A DNA stretch of 38,015 nucleotides from a virus, in the IMG/VR virus record IMGVR_UViG_3300024581_002691, positions 1 through 38,015 of that record; one strand, written 5' to 3'. The notes under the pieces are model-generated. The model was given only the letters and a program-made list of their open reading frames with translations, was not told the DNA's origin and searched no databases. Position 1 is the stretch's first letter. Each line of letters starts with the position of its first letter. The translations under genes were made by a program, and so were the position numbers. Shown here piece after piece: positions 146 through 38,015 of the stretch.

Positions 146-741
146 AAATTCAAGGTAAAGATTATTCTAAAGTTGATGAACGCATAAATGATTTTAAAAC
201 TGACAATCCAGATTATTCATTAGAATCGGAAATACTAGAAAACGGCGAAACTATATTGATGAAAGCTACGGTTAAAGACAAGGATGGCAGAGTTATGTCG
301 ACTGGGCACGCTGAAGAAGTAAGAGGTTCATCGTACATCAATAAAACATCAGCGCTAGAGAATTGCGAGACCTCGGCATGGGGCAGAGCCCTAGCTGCGA
401 TGAATTATGGCGGTGATAGCGTGGCTAGTGCTGAAGAAGTAAGTAATGCAATTATAAATCAGCGAATAAACGAAGCTGTAGAGCGCATTAAGAAACACAA
501 TCAAGCTGTGCGTGACAACATACTATCAATTGCAGAAGTTAAGAAATGCTTTGAAGATGAAAACTTTGATTCAGCAGCCGAGGCATTCTATGAGATATCT
601 GAAGAAGACAGAATGTCGTTATCATTAGCAACGACCAAGGGCGGTATATTTTCGATAGATGATTCTAAAAAATTTATGGATGATCGATGGAAAGAAGCAG
701 CTAAAAATTATCATAATAACGAAAACATGAAGAAAAATTAA
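136..741 (+). CDS. conserved phage early protein, function unknown
   Basis: 201-aa ORF in the early operon. The motif INKTSALENCETSAWGRALAAMNYGG resembles a widespread phage family that I cannot name with confidence. Confidence 0.6.
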   Translation: MPVKIQGKDYSKVDERINDFKTDNPDYSLESEILENGETILMKATVKDKDGRVMSTGHAEEVRGSSYINKTSALENCETSAWGRALAAMNYGGDSVASAEEVSNAIINQRINEAVERIKKHNQAVRDNILSIAEVKKCFEDENFDSAAEAFYEISEEDRMSLSLATTKGGIFSIDDSKKFMDDRWKEAAKNYHNNENMKKN

Positions 742-1364
742 TGATTAACATTACAGAGTATGACGAAATAATAGCGGTATCTGGATTATCTAGAGAATGG
801 GCGCAAAGGTTTATTATTAATACAGAAGAGGAAGCACTAGCAGCAGTAAAACAAAACGCAGACGCGCTTAGATACGTCAGAGAACAAACAGAAGCGATAT
901 GTTTAGCAGCAGTAGAGAAAAACGGATACGCGCTTAGATACGTCAGAGAACAAACAGAGGCGATATGTCTAGCAGCAGTAAAACAAACCGGAGACGCGCT
1001 TAGATACGTCAGAGAACAAACGGAGGAGATATGCCTAACAGCAGTAAAACAAAACGTATACGCGATTCACTACGTCAGAGAACAAACGGAGGCGATATGC
1101 CTAGCAGCAGTGAAAAAATACGGAGACAAGCTTGAATACATCAGAAAACAAACGGAGGAGATATGCCTATCAGCAGTAAAACAAAACGGATTAGCGCTTA
1201 AATACGTCAGAAAACAAACCGAAGCGATATGCTTAGCAGCAGTGAAAGAAAACGGAGAAGCTCTTAGATTCGTCATAAAACAAACAGAGGCGATATGCCT
1301 AGAAGCAGTAAAAGAAAACGGAGAAGCGCTTAGATACGTAGACTTTACTTTAAATGAGGACTAA
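741..1364 (+). CDS. DUF4116-type repeat protein (8 x 22-aa repeats)
   Basis: Repeating unit T-E-x-I-C-L-x-A-V-K-x-N-G-x-A-L-R-Y-V matches the DUF4116 signature. ATGA-type coupling to the upstream gene. Paralogue at 37515..37928. Confidence 0.75.
   Translation: MINITEYDEIIAVSGLSREWAQRFIINTEEEALAAVKQNADALRYVREQTEAICLAAVEKNGYALRYVREQTEAICLAAVKQTGDALRYVREQTEEICLTAVKQNVYAIHYVREQTEAICLAAVKKYGDKLEYIRKQTEEICLSAVKQNGLALKYVRKQTEAICLAAVKENGEALRFVIKQTEAICLEAVKENGEALRYVDFTLNED
825..1352 (+). repeat. eight tandem 66-bp coding repeats inside the DUF4116 gene
   Basis: Near-identical 66-bp units (gaagcgatatg[tc]ctagcagcagtaaaa...cgcttagatacgtcagagaacaaaca) read directly. Confidence 0.85.
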
Positions 1365-3898: not shown

Positions 3899-4452
3899 TC
3901 AATCCTTTGCTTAATCCAACCATAGACAAATTTCTCATCTTTTTCTCTTCTTTCTGCTAATTCAATATAGAAATTACACTGTAACGAGTTTAGAGCTTTA
4001 AACAGTACTTCTTCGTCTCTCAACTCTAAGTATGTACATAAGGCTAAAATAGTTTTGGGCCCTATAATTTTATCGACTTCTATGTCGCCGTAGATCGACT
4101 CTGATCGATTGAACACATTTAAGCTACGCTGTAAAAATTCAGCTGCTCTACTAACGCCGAGATTCACTCCAATATCAAAAAACTTTCCCGCAATACTTTC
4201 TGATAGTGAGCAGATCTCATCGCACTTAAGCGGGGTCCAATATCTTGAATCATAAACAGACCTGGCGAATTCTATAGGCATATCTTTCATATTCCCTTTA
4301 TACCCGCATGCTTCGGCCACAGCTTTCGTTATTCCGTGGTTAGTCTCTCCACCTGAATCAGTTGGATCATCTACGTAACCACCTTCCACAGCGATTACTT
4401 TATCAATGATCCCATCTCTAATTTCTGCTATTGTTTTTGCCATAGTTGCCAC
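3895..4452 (-). CDS. endolysin, glycoside hydrolase family 108 N-terminal domain plus PG_binding_3-like C-terminal domain
   Basis: EGGYVDDPTDSGGETNHGIT is the GH108 catalytic signature. A later IIGPKTILAL resembles the peptidoglycan-binding repeat. Confidence 0.85.
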   Translation of the reverse strand: MATMAKTIAEIRDGIIDKVIAVEGGYVDDPTDSGGETNHGITKAVAEACGYKGNMKDMPIEFARSVYDSRYWTPLKCDEICSLSESIAGKFFDIGVNLGVSRAAEFLQRSLNVFNRSESIYGDIEVDKIIGPKTILALCTYLELRDEEVLFKALNSLQCNFYIELAERREKDEKFVYGWIKQRID

Positions 4453-31603: not shown

Positions 31604-32455
31604 ATGCACTATTATTCTTTTAATATTTCTGATTTTTCTCTATCAACGAATCATCTAACGCTAGAAGAAGAAGCCGTATATAGACGACTTCTTGATTATT
31701 ATTATTCCAAAGAAAAGCCCATTCCAGCAGAAACCCAGCCGGTTATTCGTCGGTTAAGGCTAGGTTCACATTCGGATACCGTAGCTTCTATTTTGAACGA
31801 ATTTTTCGAACTTGACGATGATGGTTGGCACAATTCCCGAGCAGATATTGAGATTGCTGCATACCATGACAAAGCAGAAGTAGCGCGCAAAAATGGCAAG
31901 CTCGGCGGTAGACCCCCCAAGAATAAAGGGCTAAAAACCCAGTCGGTTATTTTAGCTAACCCAGCAGAAACCGGATCGAAAGCTAACCAAGAACTAATAA
32001 CTAATAACCAAGAACTAATAACTAATAAACATATACCCACTGCTCCGCACTGGATGAACGCATACGTTGAAACCTTCTGGTCATCTTACCCTAAAAAAAC
32101 GGACAAAAAGAAATCAATTGATCGACTTAAGAAGATGATCAAAAATAAACCTGACGAAGAATTCTTCTACAGCATACTTCACAAAGTTAACGCCAAAGCT
32201 TTAGTCACTGATAAACAATTTTGGCCAAGCCCTGATCGCTATCTGCGAGACGAGCTCTGGAATGATGAAATAATCGAGTACTCAGACAATGAAAAAAATA
32301 GATCTCAGCAACATCGAAAAGAATCTGCTCTCGAAAGAGCCGACAGGCTGCAACGAGAAATGGACACCGGAACCGGAGCGTTTGCAAACCATGGTCGAGT
32401 TCTGGAAGTGGATGACACAATTGTATCAACACAAGTTCCTGAAAGTTTTTGGTAA
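31604..32455 (+). CDS. DUF1376 (YdaU-like) replication-associated protein
   Basis: MHYYSFNISDFSLSTNHLTLEEEAVYRRLLDYYY matches the DUF1376 N-terminal signature. GKLGGRPPKNKG linker. C-terminal FWSSYPKKTDKKKS motif. Confidence 0.75.
   Translation: MHYYSFNISDFSLSTNHLTLEEEAVYRRLLDYYYSKEKPIPAETQPVIRRLRLGSHSDTVASILNEFFELDDDGWHNSRADIEIAAYHDKAEVARKNGKLGGRPPKNKGLKTQSVILANPAETGSKANQELITNNQELITNKHIPTAPHWMNAYVETFWSSYPKKTDKKKSIDRLKKMIKNKPDEEFFYSILHKVNAKALVTDKQFWPSPDRYLRDELWNDEIIEYSDNEKNRSQQHRKESALERADRLQREMDTGTGAFANHGRVLEVDDTIVSTQVPESFW
31985..32026 (+). repeat. two perfect tandem 21-bp repeats (AACCAAGAACTAATAACTAAT), candidate iterons
   Basis: Read directly. Encodes NQELITN twice in the inter-domain linker of the DUF1376 gene. 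Confidence 0.85.
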
Positions 32456-32849: not shown

Positions 32850-32878
32850 TTGACTATAATAGATTAGTTAGATACTAT
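32850..32878 (+). promoter_or_regulatory. sigma70-type promoter (TTGACT, 17-nt spacer, TACTAT) with TTTAGTA upstream element
   Basis: TTTAGTATTGACT is identical to the other early promoters. Lies 34 nt upstream of gene 32912. Confidence 0.6.
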
Positions 32879-32911: not shown

Positions 32912-33265
32912 ATGAACGATGAAAAATATTCTAGTCGAGTTGAAATAGAGAAAAAAGAAAAATGGCTTGATTGGGTAGACGAAATACCTTACTTGAATTT
33001 TGATCCTAATTGGGATGTATCAATTATTCCACCATTTATGTATGCGATGGTTAGATTTAAGGTTAAGTCTGGCGAGGGATTTGTTAGTGTTTATTTGGAT
33101 TGCCACAACAGCTTAGGATATTTCGATGGGCCGTATTGGGAAATTTACCCTTTTCATGATGACGTTTACAGAGTCCAGATAAACGATACAGAAAAATTAA
33201 TGGCTGTTATATCAGAATCTCTTAACTATCAAAACAACTCGAAAGAAACCGAGAAAACATTATGA
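32912..33265 (+). CDS. hypothetical protein (module 1, globular partner)
   Basis: 117-aa ORF with initiation region GAGGAAACGAAAATG. Confidence 0.55.
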   Translation: MNDEKYSSRVEIEKKEKWLDWVDEIPYLNFDPNWDVSIIPPFMYAMVRFKVKSGEGFVSVYLDCHNSLGYFDGPYWEIYPFHDDVYRVQINDTEKLMAVISESLNYQNNSKETEKTL

Positions 33266-33435
33266 ACATAGCAATCATGGCGGCTGCAAAGCCTGGCACT
33301 CAATATCATTCTAGTTCAGGGCCTAGGTACGGTTCTCGGTACGGGTCTCGTTCTGGGCGCTCGCTTGGGTCTCACTCTAAGTCTTATTCTAAGTCTTGGT
33401 ATTGTTCAGCGTCTGGACCTAAAGCAGGCAATTAA
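33262..33435 (+). CDS. 57-aa basic Ser-X repeat mini-protein (MNIAIMAAAKPG...SGPKAGN)
   Basis: Not in the ORF track. ATGA overlap with the upstream stop. N- and C-termini are conserved with 34686..34874. Ser is almost always TCT. Confidence 0.5.
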   Translation: MNIAIMAAAKPGTQYHSSSGPRYGSRYGSRSGRSLGSHSKSYSKSWYCSASGPKAGN

Positions 33436-33464
33436 AAGTTAACTTAACTAAAGAGGAAAAAACT
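33430..33464 (+). promoter_or_regulatory. conserved 35-nt spacer with T7-epsilon-like TTAACTTAA plus SD GAGGA (copy 1)
   Basis: AATTAAAAGTTAACTTAACTAAAGAGGAAAAAACT; two further near-identical copies exist. Confidence 0.6.
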
Positions 33465-33848
33465 ATGGACATAGATGATTTAACATACGGTCAAATCAAA
33501 CAATTAAGCAATCTTTTCAGCAATAATAACATTAGCAATAATCATGGCTTAAACTTCCATGTAGGTAAGAAAGTTATCATTAGGACTTTATCCGCTGGAG
33601 TTTGGTTCGGTAAGATCGAACAAAAATGTGGAGAAGAGGTTATTGTAAAAAACGCGCGTAGAATGTACTCATGGAAAGCTAAAAAATCAATCTCACTAAG
33701 CGGTGTAGCAAAATACGGAATTGATCAAAAAAATAGCCGCATAGCTCCTGCTGTCGATAACGAATGGCTTGTTGCTATTGAATTGATCGGATTAACTGAT
33801 GCAGCAATAGAGTCAATAGAAACAGCGGCTGAAGCTGAGGCCTCGTAA
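33465..33848 (+). CDS. conserved phage protein of unknown function (module 2, globular partner)
   Basis: VGKKVIIRTLSAGVWFGKIE...VKNARRMYSWKAKKSISLSGVAKYG resembles a widespread uncharacterised phage family often found beside ssb. Confidence 0.6.
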   Translation: MDIDDLTYGQIKQLSNLFSNNNISNNHGLNFHVGKKVIIRTLSAGVWFGKIEQKCGEEVIVKNARRMYSWKAKKSISLSGVAKYGIDQKNSRIAPAVDNEWLVAIELIGLTDAAIESIETAAEAEAS

Positions 33849-34063
33849 TGTCTTATTTAGATAAACCAGAAGAAAATGGCGATGGCGATGGCTCTGGCTC
33901 TGGCTATGGCTCTGGCTCTGGCTATGGCTCTGGCTCTGGCTATGGCGATGGCTATGGCTCTGGCTCTGGCTATGGCTCTGGCTCTGGCTATGGCTCTGGC
34001 GATGGCGATGGCTATGGCTCTGGCTCTGGCTCTGGCTATGGCTCTGGCTCTGGCTATGGCTAA
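33848..34063 (+). CDS. 71-aa (Gly-X)30 low-complexity protein with nine GYG motifs
   Basis: TAATG overlap with the upstream stop. The frame choice is uncertain because all forward frames are open. Confidence 0.45.
   Translation: MSYLDKPEENGDGDGSGSGYGSGSGYGSGSGYGDGYGSGSGYGSGSGYGSGDGDGYGSGSGSGYGSGSGYG
33878..34060 (+). repeat. 183-bp hexanucleotide array (GGC-TCT / GGC-TAT / GGC-GAT)
   Basis: Read directly: 30.5 units with no deviation from GGC at every second codon. Confidence 0.9.
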
Positions 34064-34076
34064 TCAATAATCCGGC

Positions 34077-34111
34077 AATTAAAATTTAACTTAAACAAAG
34101 AGGAAAAAACT
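34077..34111 (+). promoter_or_regulatory. conserved spacer with epsilon-like TTAACTTAA plus SD (copy 2)
   Basis: AATTAAAATTTAACTTAAACAAAGAGGAAAAAACT. Confidence 0.6.
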
Positions 34112-34423
34112 ATGAGTACATTTGAATCACCCTACCGCGTTGGTAAAAAATACGTATTTCGCACAGTAACGCAATGTGTAATTGGAGAAATCACAGCGAT
34201 TGTAGGCACCTTTGCTGTGTTGAAACATGCTTCTTGGATTGCTGACACTGGCAGATATCACAACTTCTTTAAAAGCGGTGCTACTGCTCAAGACCTTACT
34301 GAGATAGAGCCGTATCCAGATTGTGAAGATGAAGAGTTTGGCGTTTATAGTTGCACAGTTAATCTTGCGTCTCTTACAGATGCTGGACCTTGGCAACATG
34401 ATTTGCCGCGAAATCAGAAATGA
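34112..34423 (+). CDS. hypothetical protein, shorter paralogue of 33465..33848 (module 3, globular partner)
   Basis: RVGKKYVFRTVTQCVIGEITAIVG aligns with HVGKKVIIRTLSAGVWFGKIEQKCG. Confidence 0.55.
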   Translation: MSTFESPYRVGKKYVFRTVTQCVIGEITAIVGTFAVLKHASWIADTGRYHNFFKSGATAQDLTEIEPYPDCEDEEFGVYSCTVNLASLTDAGPWQHDLPRNQK

Positions 34424-34695
34424 ACGTGGTGATGATGGGGGCTGCAAAGCCTGGGGGTAGGTCTTTGTCTAGGTGCAGGTCAGGGTCTAGGTGGTATTCT
34501 TGGGCTAGGTCTATTTCTCGGGCTAGGCATGAGTCTAGATTTTGGGCTAAATCTAGTTCGTGGGCTAGGTCCTTGTCTAGGTCTTGTTCTAGATCTAGGT
34601 CTTGGTCTAGGTATAAGTATTCTGTTAGATATTGGTCTGTTTACTTTTCTTGCCATAGGCCTGGTTATAGGTCTAGGAGTACATCATGCACGTAG
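34420..34695 (+). CDS. 91-aa basic Ser/Arg/Trp repeat protein (MNVVMMGAAKPGG...)
   Basis: ATGA overlap with the upstream stop. N-terminus conserved with the two paralogues. TCT-AGG hexamer periodicity. Confidence 0.5.
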   Translation: MNVVMMGAAKPGGRSLSRCRSGSRWYSWARSISRARHESRFWAKSSSWARSLSRSCSRSRSWSRYKYSVRYWSVYFSCHRPGYRSRSTSCT

Positions 34696-34874
34696 CAATG
34701 ATGGCAGTTAAAAAGCCTGGCTCTAAATATGGCTCTATTTATATATCTATGTCTAGGTATAGTTATATTTGGTCTTATGTCGGGTCTAGATATAAGTCTA
34801 GGTCTAAGTTTAAATGTTTTTTTAGATATGGCTCTTGGTTTTGGTCTAAGTCTGGACCTAAAGCCGCAAATTAA
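34686..34874 (+). CDS. 62-aa basic Ser/Lys/Tyr/Trp/Phe repeat protein (MHVAMMAVKKPG...SGPKAAN)
   Basis: Both termini are conserved with 33262..33435. 10-nt overlap with the upstream paralogue. Confidence 0.5.
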   Translation: MHVAMMAVKKPGSKYGSIYISMSRYSYIWSYVGSRYKSRSKFKCFFRYGSWFWSKSGPKAAN

Positions 34875-34898
34875 AATTTAACTTAAAAGAGGAAAAAC
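34869..34898 (+). promoter_or_regulatory. conserved spacer with epsilon-like TTAACTTAA plus SD (copy 3), in front of ssb
   Basis: AATTAAAATTTAACTTAAAAGAGGAAAAAC. Confidence 0.6.
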
Positions 34899-35333
34899 AT
34901 GAGAGGCATTAACAAAGCAATTTTGGTTGGATCACTCGGAGCTGATCCAGAGTGTCGAGCAACAAGCACAGGTGAAACAGTCGCTACAATCAGTCTAGCA
35001 ACTAACGAAGAATGGAAAGACAAGCAAGGACTCAAGCAATCTAAAACGGAATGGCATCGCGTTGTTTTTTTCGGGAAGCTTGCGGAGATCGTTCGTGACT
35101 ACTTGAAAAAAGGTTCTTCATGTTATGTCGAGGGCAAGATACAAACACGAAAGTGGCAAGCTGACGACGGCACGGACAGATACACGACAGAAATCGTTGG
35201 TCGTGAAATGCAGATGCTAGGCGGATCTAGCAAAGATGATAATAGTAAAAGTCATGACTCATCAACTCATAATCGTGATGTTAGCAAGCAAACGACAGAC
35301 GAGTGGTTAGCTGACTATAACGCGCCGTTTTAG
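34899..35333 (+). CDS. ssb: single-stranded DNA-binding protein
   Basis: [15 protein letters not shown]...[46 protein letters not shown] is a canonical bacterial-type OB-fold SSB. The acidic tip ends in ...PF. Confidence 0.95.
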
Positions 35334-37514: not shown

Positions 37515-37928
37515 ATGAACATAGACAAAATAATAGCGGCATCTGGATTATCTAAAGAATGGGCGCAAAGTTGTATTATTCATACAGAAGAGGAAGCACT
37601 AGCAGCTGTAAAAGGAGACGGATTCGCGCTTGAATACGTTAGAAAACAAACAGAAGCGATATGTCTAGCAGCTGTAAAACAAAACGGATTAGCGCTTCAA
37701 CACGTCAGAGAACAAACAGAGGAGATATGTCTAGCAGCAGTAAAACGAAACGGATACGCGCTTAAATTCGTCAGAAAACAAACAGAGGCGATATGTCTAG
37801 CAGCTGTAAAACGAAACGGAGAAGCGCTTGCATACGTCATAAAACAAACGGAGGCGATATGCCTAGAAGCAGTAAAAGAATACAGATACGCGCTTAAATA
37901 CGTAGACTTTACTTTAACTGAGGACTAA
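37515..37928 (+). CDS. DUF4116-type repeat protein (5 x 22-aa repeats), paralogue of 741..1364
   Basis: Same N-terminus (IIAASGLSKEWAQ..II.TEEEALAAVK), same repeats and same C-terminus (KYVDFTLTED). Confidence 0.75.
   Translation: MNIDKIIAASGLSKEWAQSCIIHTEEEALAAVKGDGFALEYVRKQTEAICLAAVKQNGLALQHVREQTEEICLAAVKRNGYALKFVRKQTEAICLAAVKRNGEALAYVIKQTEAICLEAVKEYRYALKYVDFTLTED
37587..37916 (+). repeat. five tandem 66-bp coding repeats inside the second DUF4116 gene
   Basis: Read directly. The units are near-identical to those at 825..1352. Confidence 0.85.
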
Positions 37929-37932
37929 ACAA

Positions 37933-38015
37933 ATGAACGAAATAATAATAAACGGGGAGAAGATCGATGACGTTGTCGATTTTATACGCGGCGCTAGAGA
38001 CGCAAAAGAGGGTAT
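37933..38015 (+). CDS. 5' part of the 59-aa hypothetical protein that continues at 2..145 (truncated by the window end)
   Basis: ATG follows the GAGGACTAAACAA cassette. The frame is open to the window end and through the 48-bp overlap. Confidence 0.5.
   Translation, partial: MNEIIINGEKIDDVVDFIRGARDAKEG
37968..38015. repeat. second copy of the 48-bp terminal repeat (identical to 1..48)
   Basis: Exact identity read directly. Confidence 0.9.

Follow-up and report, generated by a model that had tools for sequence, protein, structure and literature searches.

Which proteins are encoded ahead of ssb in the viral genome IMGVR_UViG_3300024581_002691 of IMG/VR, and are the low-complexity open reading frames (ORFs) among them genes at all? 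The whole record of 38,015 nucleotides (nt) was analysed and is called the window in the following. From position 32912 up to ssb, the gene of the single-strand DNA-binding protein (SSB), one unit plan recurs three times (modules 1 to 3): the gene of a small folded protein is translationally coupled to the gene of a dipeptide-repeat protein, in which glycine (Gly-X) or serine (Ser-X) alternates with a second residue X. A sequence-only reading of the window had taken the three modules for one functional system, possibly a phage-built condensate or scaffold concentrating SSB, single-stranded DNA (ssDNA) and recombination enzymes. In comparison with related phage loci (L numbers), modules 2 and 3 appear as two homologous versions of a two-gene cassette that is widespread in phages, a descriptive account that is very probable as a whole.

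Gene pairs of modules 2 and 3

All ORFs and the ATGA and TAATG overlaps listed in the sequence-only reading are present in the window. Modules 2 and 3 comprise the following genes, with lengths in amino acids (aa):

33465-33848, + strand: 127-aa DUF6948 protein of module 2, N-terminal helix and predicted Sm/LSm-like beta-barrel
33848-34063, + strand: 71-aa acidic (G-[S/Y/D])n protein of module 2, TAATG overlap with the 127-aa gene
34112-34423, + strand: 103-aa protein of module 3, 'SWIADTGR' family, predicted LSm-like
34420-34695, + strand: 91-aa basic (S-[R/W/...])n protein of module 3, ATGA overlap with the 103-aa gene
34686-34874, + strand: 62-aa second basic Ser-X protein of module 3, 10-nt overlap with the end of the 91-aa ORF, C-terminus SGPKAAN

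The 127-aa protein matched Pfam PF22253 (DUF6948) over the full model (E=2e-26, 92.3 bits vs a cut-off of 27). The SWIADTGR family has more than 120 members, no Pfam entry and the core YLFRTVTH...ASWIADTGRYHD...EVEPYP...LP.EQK. On the repeat side, a Gly-X cassette is defined by a (G-[Y/S/D/N])n ORF with an MS.L.KP start at or overlapping the DUF6948 stop, and the 71-aa protein consists of MSYLDKPEEN followed by (GX)30. The definition of a Ser-X cassette comprises an (S-[W/R/G])n ORF, the N-terminus MNAA[IL][ML]RAGFD and an ATGA overlap with a preceding SWIADTGR-family gene. The 91-aa and 62-aa ORFs have the overlap, an MN[IV][AV][IM]M start and Ser at alternate positions; both are degenerate, with K, Y and other residues at X and with AAKPG replacing RAGFD. 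An AGGAG lies 6 nt ahead of the ATG of the 62-aa ORF. Together with a 57-aa ORF in module 1, the window has three Ser-X ORFs with the common N-terminus M[NH][IV][AV][IM]M[AG][AV][AK]KPG, and two of them end on SGPKA[GA]N. The conserved N-termini among the relatives are MSKLNKP for Gly-X proteins with DUF6948 and MNAA[IL][ML]RAGFD for Ser-X proteins with the SWIADTGR family.

Conservation of the pairs in other phages

Of 88 DUF6948 loci, 76 have a Gly-X ORF beginning at the stop of the globular gene. Ten of the remaining 12 are cut short by the end of the contig, and in the other two the Gly-X ORF is short (L014) or degenerate (L051). The SWIADTGR gene is directly followed by a Ser-X gene in 36 of 44 loci, and most exceptions are truncated or masked. 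Loci truly without a Ser-X gene are L093, L094 and L126, and L105 carries a degenerate Ser-X gene. From the repeat side, IMG/VR was searched with the DNA pattern (GGCKMT)6, which is blind to the globular gene. An LSm-like gene was located at most 900 nt upstream in 60 of the 64 evaluable loci with a true G-[Y/D/N...] repeat, and none of the 22 pure (GS)n repeat loci had an upstream LSm-like gene. The globular subfamily matches the repeat type: DUF6948 occurs with acidic (G-[Y/S/D/N])n proteins and SWIADTGR with basic (S-[W/R/G])n proteins. Independent occurrence of globular and low-complexity genes in relatives had been named in the sequence-only reading as an observation that would speak against its proposal. 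The pairing withstood this comparison, which started from either gene for module 2 and from the globular gene for module 3; it is conserved and coupled in these two modules, and the pair claimed for module 1 is not conserved. The idea of one three-part functional system did not hold, since no other DUF6948 or SWIADTGR locus had both cassette types in the fetched flanks of 1.5-4 kb on each side. Apparent double matches elsewhere turned out to be cross-family matches at a single gene.

Most DUF6948 relatives show a 17-nt overlap between the end of the DUF6948 gene and the start of the Gly-X gene (L003, L005-L008 at ~4362-4381; L137 at 2883-2899). One DNA sequence is read there in two frames, as the DUF6948 C-terminus ...KDVEAE-stop and as the Gly-X N-terminus MSKLNK. 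The 17-nt overlap is lost in the window (TAATG), the MS.L.KP motif is kept.

Reading frame of the repeat genes

All three frames are open across the Gly-X repeat of the window, and the +1 frame is open across its three Ser-X ORFs, where it reads as a hydrophobic (G-L)n sequence. The frame was assigned by comparison among phages. In 46 loci reached via the 103-aa family, from phages of 31-66% G+C, the reading after the SWIADTGR-family gene was constantly a series of S-[W/R/G] repeats. Each phage uses one Ser codon and this codon varies among phages (TCT 478, TCG 469, AGC 406, AGT 93); depending on it, the other frames read GL, GR/GV, GA/EL or GV. As the Ser codon differs among phages, only the Ser-X frame is conserved. 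The Gly codon of the Gly-X genes is uniform within a gene and is GGC, GGA, GGG or GGT in different phages, and the alternative frames vary as well (window, ALAM; L002, ATAT). An older Gly-X array in L049 has diverged at the wobble positions and has kept Gly at each second residue. Across ~230 related phage loci the Gly-X or Ser-X frame is constant, and the codons, hence the other two frames, vary. On the strength of these comparisons the repeat ORFs are considered real genes, translated in the Gly-X or Ser-X frame.

A translation of the window Ser-X ORFs in the +1 frame would yield hydrophobic glycine-zipper membrane peptides. Besides the openness of this frame, the most variable nucleotide of the hexamer would suit it, being the silent third position of a Leu codon (CTN); in the relative L091, with 29 consecutive NGGTCT hexamers, N alone varies and is silent in the Gly-Leu frame. 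The relatives read GA, GR, GV or EL in this frame, however, and S-[WRG] alone is conserved. Module 1 lacks a start codon for it. The shared termini of the Ser-X copies differ, among others, by synonymous changes in the Ser-X frame, and a comparison of the copies at their two ends gave synonymous changes in this frame only. Cross-phage comparison led us to reject the Gly-Leu frame, which has become scarcely credible.

As (GGNNNN)n elements, the repeats might also act at the level of DNA or RNA: through an RNA or G-rich structure, as a hotspot of recombination or as sites to which the neighbouring protein binds, with the ORFs being incidental. Both classes have a GG every 6 nt, five of the six hexamer positions can be invariant as in the 29 hexamers of L091, and the X codons of the Ser-X genes are to 91% NGG whatever the genome G+C. 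The RNA of the window Gly-X gene is predicted to fold strongly. However, the nucleotide unit varies among phages under a constant dipeptide pattern, start codons, overlaps and N-terminal peptide motifs are conserved, the L049 array has kept its alternate Gly under wobble divergence, and Rfam gave no match. The fold itself needs the GGC codon and would vanish with GGA or GGT as Gly codon. A role as nucleic acid instead of protein is considered highly improbable. For the window Gly-X mRNA (33848-34063), -102.8 kcal/mol were predicted vs -74.7 kcal/mol for shuffled sequence (z = -7.0); the strength of the fold arises because GGCU is self-complementary through G-U wobble pairs. Such a fold could affect the translation or the stability of its transcript.

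Homologues of the window Ser-X peptides were searched for in IMG/VR with a degenerate N-terminal pattern and among 1.84 billion representatives with a Ser-X profile, and both searches returned only the window's own sequence; Ser-X relatives were reached solely through the globular partner. Gene callers often skip the repeat ORFs or choose a wrong frame. The public gene call for L004 (4393-4854) reads the repeat as Ala-Leu-Ala-Met (ALAM) and joins it to the following gene; Iodobacter phage PhiPLPE (L138) has no annotation for its Gly-X gene at ~1170-1420.

Predicted fold of the globular partners

The 127-aa and 103-aa proteins had been proposed to be paralogues, and profile comparison agrees: BLASTP aligned the two with 2e-5, and hhalign of the family profiles yielded 97.4% (E=1.4e-11). 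The 103-aa protein alone remains below the DUF6948 Pfam threshold. Both families have the N-terminal helix MNIDDLTIGQAKEL in common, which is lost in the 103-aa copy of the window. AlphaFold2 models reached a pLDDT of 88.5 (127 aa) and 90.1 (103 aa). In a Foldseek comparison with the PDB, nearly all of the top 40-50 matches of both models were Sm/LSm chains, with probabilities of ~1.0, E values from 6e-3 to 1e-1 and a target-normalised TM of at most 0.75. The best match of the 103-aa model was 6f9w, the LSm domain of LSm14 with a short 4E-T peptide (E ~6e-3, 14% identity). A shared Sm/LSm-like fold, in which a helix precedes a strongly bent beta-barrel of five strands, is predicted from these models, a fold assignment that says nothing on RNA binding.

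Sequence families gave little beyond DUF6948. No Sm or Hfq family of Pfam was matched, DUF6948 was the only match of the LSm-like proteins in the Pfam and NCBIfam scans, and a single NCBIfam match lay far under its cut-off (10.4 bits vs 650). Hfq chains were absent among the top Foldseek matches of the 127-aa model. The cassette proteins had no meaningful match in PADLOC and just weak matches in PHROGs, to families of unknown function; all neighbours in the BFVD viral-structure search were uncharacterised phage proteins. The name 'ferredoxin-fold anticodon binding domain', given by JGI to the homologue P0012, was unsupported by the present analyses. The repeat-side search exposed a third, divergent LSm-like subfamily (L002, L175, L183, L233, L255).

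Turnover and codon usage of the repeats

Identical DUF6948 proteins stand beside differing Gly-X proteins in L005, L006 and L007, and L096-L099 likewise combine identical globular proteins with differing repeat proteins. Behind the identical P0193 protein stand one to three differing Ser-X genes. The LSm-like gene of L115 (2405-3727) is duplicated exactly and in tandem, and the Ser-X genes behind the two copies differ. In L049 (1712-4708) a single DUF6948 gene is followed by ~11 Gly-X genes in tandem, all with a separate MS[YRH]L... start. The copy number of repeat genes spans 1 to ~11 per locus. In our reading, repeat units are gained and lost very rapidly in these sequences, and point changes are sifted by their effect on composition.

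The X codons are restricted. In the Ser-X genes (L091-L136), 1333 of 1469 X codons (91%) are NGG, regardless of a genome G+C of 31-66%: TGG 438, GGG 365, CGG 282 and AGG 248. GGG makes up 93% of the Gly codons in these repeats, and CGG or AGG 98% of the Arg codons. The X residues of the Gly-X genes are S (32%), Y (29%), D (25%) and N (5.5%), and ~92% of their codons are at most one substitution from TAY, a figure that is partly circular owing to the filter used. A single mutational step separates the X residues of either class from an aromatic codon, TGG or TAY. A targeted mutational process may stand behind the changes in the repeats. Precomputed Pfam matches of the neighbouring genes included no reverse-transcriptase domain as expected for a diversity-generating retroelement, and the tandem Ser-X genes included no all-AGG template copy. 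Modifying enzymes of the RiPP type (radical SAM, cyclodehydratase, protease, exporter) were not found among the neighbours, which are replication, recombination and small unknown genes.

A putative LSm-like assembly and its alternatives

Sm-fold proteins usually oligomerise. Our best guess for the cassette, with a probability of roughly one in three, is a putative multivalent nucleic-acid-binding assembly, in which an LSm-like oligomer docks the N-terminal motif of its partner. The LSm-like protein would oligomerise, and its barrel would hold a short conserved motif at the N-terminus of the cognate repeat protein. This motif is the sole non-repetitive part of the repeat protein, and each partner family goes with its own version of it, which makes it the likely docking site. 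The outcome would be a particle with many flexible tails, in which Gly or Ser alternates with aromatic and charged residues; it would amount to a Sm or Hfq ring with low-complexity tails, made in two pieces. At an early stage of infection the assembly would bind RNA or ssDNA, or self-associate to form a condensate or else a fibrillar scaffold resembling silk. What would count is the composition of the tails and their dose, not their exact sequence. The tail composition, aromatic and charged with Gly or Ser as spacer, also fits the condensate of SSB, ssDNA and recombination enzymes suggested in the sequence-only reading.

Several points weigh against such an assembly. The Foldseek matches are weak (E ~1e-2; query-normalised TM 0.4-0.5). 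A strict alternation of residues may favour beta-sheet or amyloid over a liquid condensate. The codon restriction of the Ser-X genes exceeds the needs of amino-acid selection and hints at another constraint or a mutational process. Fast-evolving early genes are typical of anti-defence functions too.

An anti-defence or host-takeover sponge is an alternative, in our view a rather unlikely one. The repeat proteins would serve as bulk decoys: the Gly-X proteins, acidic and aromatic, would imitate a nucleic acid such as ssDNA, the basic Ser-X proteins with their Trp and Arg would coat RNA, DNA or a host factor, and the LSm-like partner would be a chaperone, a solubiliser or a targeting subunit. 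The opposite charges of the two cassette types suit this role, as do the very fast change of repeat genes beside unchanged partners and a copy number amplifiable to ~11. Cassettes are located in early regions that contain recombination and nin-type genes, often close to genes for RecT, Erf, SSB, RusA, NinG, DnaB or methylases, and are nearly absent from bacterial genomes; the SWIADTGR family was present in 5 metagenome-assembled genomes among 185,579 species genomes. However, families of known function in PADLOC, Pfam, NCBIfam and PHROGs were unmatched, the sponge has no known target, and slippage-prone DNA together with a selection for composition only accounts for the fast change without an arms race. 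Other RNA-regulator genes were seen in cassette-bearing early regions, Hfq in L003 (2249-2458) and CsrA in L093 and L094 (1017-1202).

The tight translational coupling and the strict one-to-one matching of families are also reminiscent of a toxin-antitoxin-like pair. The partner would neutralise a peptide that is toxic, prone to aggregation or active on membranes, and the pair would act in superinfection exclusion or in the timing of host shut-off or lysis. Membrane activity is known from (RW)-rich peptides and a tendency to form amyloid from alternating sequences, which would suit a toxic peptide. Yet the repeat proteins have neither signal peptide nor transmembrane segment, lysis genes are not usual neighbours (except in L005, with a lysozyme gene ~3 kb away), and L049 amplifies the repeat gene without the antidote, which is odd for a toxin. 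To this pair we assign a small probability.

Comparison with known Sm-fold systems and repeats

The putative LSm-like assembly with repeat tails has counterparts of several kinds. Eukaryotic SmD1, SmD3, SmB and LSm4 bear tails of RG/GR dipeptide repeats and resemble the cassette in the combination of a Sm-like barrel, preceded by an N-terminal helix, with a low-complexity dipeptide repeat. The phage repeat, however, belongs to a second polypeptide, translationally coupled and with an N-terminal motif of its own, and consists of S-[W/R/G] or G-[Y/S/D] instead of RG, and no sequence similarity was detected with Pfam and NCBIfam. LSm14/Rap55 and Edc3 (PDB 6f9w, 6am0, 2vxf) are among the best structural matches of the phage proteins. 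With their divergent LSm domains these P-body scaffolds recognise short linear motifs of disordered proteins and give rise to multivalent condensates, which is the behaviour that we propose for the phage pair. They are eukaryotic multidomain proteins, though, and the likeness is one of fold only. Aromatic or charged residues spaced by Gly or Ser are known from prion-like [G/S]Y[G/S] domains, RS/RGG domains and the (GX)n of silk fibroin. The phage repeats resemble these in composition and strict two-residue alternation, without homology, but are small stand-alone proteins of 50-150 aa.

The Hfq protein of Acinetobacter baumannii has Gly-rich C-terminal GGFGGQ repeats that modulate its function (PMC11617691). 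It is a Sm-fold protein of the bacterial world with Gly- and aromatic-rich repeats; its repeats are fused hexapeptides, whereas the phage repeats are encoded by a separate gene. For T4-type phages, the abstract of a study reports the small early LSm-like proteins GoF, MotB.1 and Frd.2 with a possible RNA function (PMC12152347). They share with the cassette proteins the small size, the early phage origin and the predicted LSm-like fold, but belong to other sequence families, and a coupled repeat gene is not mentioned in that abstract (PMC12152347). In full-text literature DUF6948 occurred in 0 papers, and the literature on phage dipeptide repeats, Sm-like proteins and condensates did not describe the cassette. 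The two-gene split, the chemistry of the repeats and the mode of evolution set the cassette apart from known arrangements of a Sm fold with a tail. There is a real chance that it is something new altogether.

Junction elements and origin of the block

The block upstream of ssb is an operon unit triplicated by block duplication. The units are joined by junction elements:

33430-33464, + strand: junction element copy 1, AATTAAAAGTTAACTTAA and AAAGAGGAAAAA, with stop codons and the ribosome-binding site of the next gene
34077-34111, + strand: junction element copy 2, retaining GGCAATTAA, the C-terminal Gly-Asn-stop of Ser-X genes
34869-34898, + strand: junction element copy 3, running into ssb

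In the whole 38-kb window, AATTAAAA[GT]TTAACTTAA was found at 33430, 34077 and 34869. The junction 18-mer had one further match with 3 mismatches in 38 kb, with 0.17 expected by chance, and AAAGAGGAAAAA was restricted to the three junctions. The near-identity of the three spacers, observed before, corresponds to these near-identical elements of 30-35 nt. The spacer lengths of 35, 35 and 30 nt are correct if counted from AATTAA; the true gaps from stop to start are 29, 48 and 24 nt. Junction copy 2 follows a Gly-X gene and has kept the Ser-X ending GGCAATTAA, therefore the unit was copied as a block. The earlier proposal of a block duplication is borne out by the junction copies and by the phage L115 with its exact tandem duplication of such a unit.

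Module 1, a local hybrid

Module 1 consists of two genes:

32912-33265, + strand: 117-aa globular protein, no family match in profile scans
33262-33435, + strand: 57-aa basic Ser/Gly/Tyr/Arg/Lys-rich protein of a degenerate Ser-X type, ATGA overlap with the 117-aa gene

The 117-aa protein matched neither profile families nor PDB sequences, and only 2 homologues were present among 5.8 billion proteins (L089, L090). Three further homologues were located in the fetched loci, at 1216-1560 in L113 and L114 and at 1241-1579 in L069. None of the five is directly followed by a repeat gene. A relation to the LSm-like families was rejected, as hhalign gave probabilities of at most 0.2% against both family alignments. 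The N-terminus of the 57-aa protein, MNIAIM.A, resembles the Ser-X family motif MNAAIMRAGFD. Module 1 is a local hybrid of an unrelated 117-aa gene and a degenerate Ser-X gene. The homologues in L113, L114 and L069 precede the LSm-like gene by 1-1.5 kb; the 117-aa protein thus recurs near the cassettes, uncoupled to a repeat gene.

Genomic context

The window is probably a complete phage genome of ~37.97 kb, since a comparison of its ends revealed that ~49 nt at 1-49 recur at 37967-38015, the usual mark of a circular assembly. Close relatives at the DNA level were not present among 50,697 GenBank phage records. From ~29 kb on, the + strand is an early region with replication and recombination genes. 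Features around the block are:

31604-32455, + strand: DUF1376 primosomal-like replication protein, upstream of the block, from profile scans
32850-32878, + strand: candidate sigma-70-like promoter TTGACT-17-TACTAT in the gap preceding module 1, 9/12 matches, weak evidence
34899-35333, + strand: ssb, single-strand DNA-binding protein (Pfam SSB E=1.8e-36; phrog_44)

A 180-aa ORF overlaps the DUF1376 gene and sits between this gene and the block. In a promoter scan of the region, sigma-70-like sites were no commoner than in shuffled sequence. The genes past ssb encode a NinB-like protein (weak match), a RecA-dependent nuclease and a VRR-NUC-like protein (weak match). The tie of the modules to ssb did not extend to the relatives: ssb was detected in the fetched flanks of only 13 of 136 related loci, a lower bound from a BLAST-level screen that used a few seed sequences. 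The gene is a neighbour of the block, and nothing found marks it as a part of the cassette.

An exact 21-nt repeat, TAACCAAGAACTAATAACTAA, is located at 31984-32028 within the DUF1376 gene, with 2.1 copies and a 7-nt sub-period, and codes for NQELITN twice. By analogy to lambdoid O genes it may be an iteron or origin. Two paralogous proteins of the window (741-1364 and 37515-37928) consist of 22-aa repeats (LAAVKQNGDALRYVREQTEAIC), encoded by 66-nt tandem repeats with 7.6 and 4.6 copies; they are DUF4116-like. In the relative L008 a DUF4116 gene is located immediately upstream of the DUF6948 gene.

Occurrence and meaning of the cassette

Cassettes are carried by hundreds of uncultured phages and a few cultured ones, including the Pectobacterium phages Sabo and Ymer with their relatives, and PhiPLPE. 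DUF6948 and Gly-X genes are present in Sabo (CDS0034/0035), both annotated as 'hypothetical', and in Iodobacter phage PhiPLPE. With tblastn, which covered the globular gene only, DUF6948 was also found in seven other Pectobacterium- or Dickeya-named phages, in Vibrio phage IKEMa6-1 and in Ralstonia phage NK-7.

The cassettes represent a new and testable class of early phage proteins, for which no named family beyond the DUF was found. They offer a natural, genetically tractable case of composition-selected proteins that are paired with a dedicated folded partner. Synonymous sites that are uniform within a gene and vary among phages, combined with X residues close to a Trp or Tyr codon, are an unusual mode of protein evolution. 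The cassettes may be the counterpart, in bacterial viruses, of Sm/LSm proteins with low-complexity tails. A wider proposition, which we regard as unlikely at present, is that tailed phages widely encode a two-piece Sm-like particle. Its LSm-like ring core would capture, without a covalent bond, the N-terminal motif of changeable tails encoded by other genes, either acidic (G-Y/S/D) or basic (S-W/R/G). In the early phase of infection the particle would nucleate a condensate, or a scaffold resembling silk, on RNA or ssDNA. If true, separate tail genes on slippage-prone DNA would let a phage tune valency, charge and dose within a few generations, and the phage of the window, with both charge types, could form a mixed coacervate.

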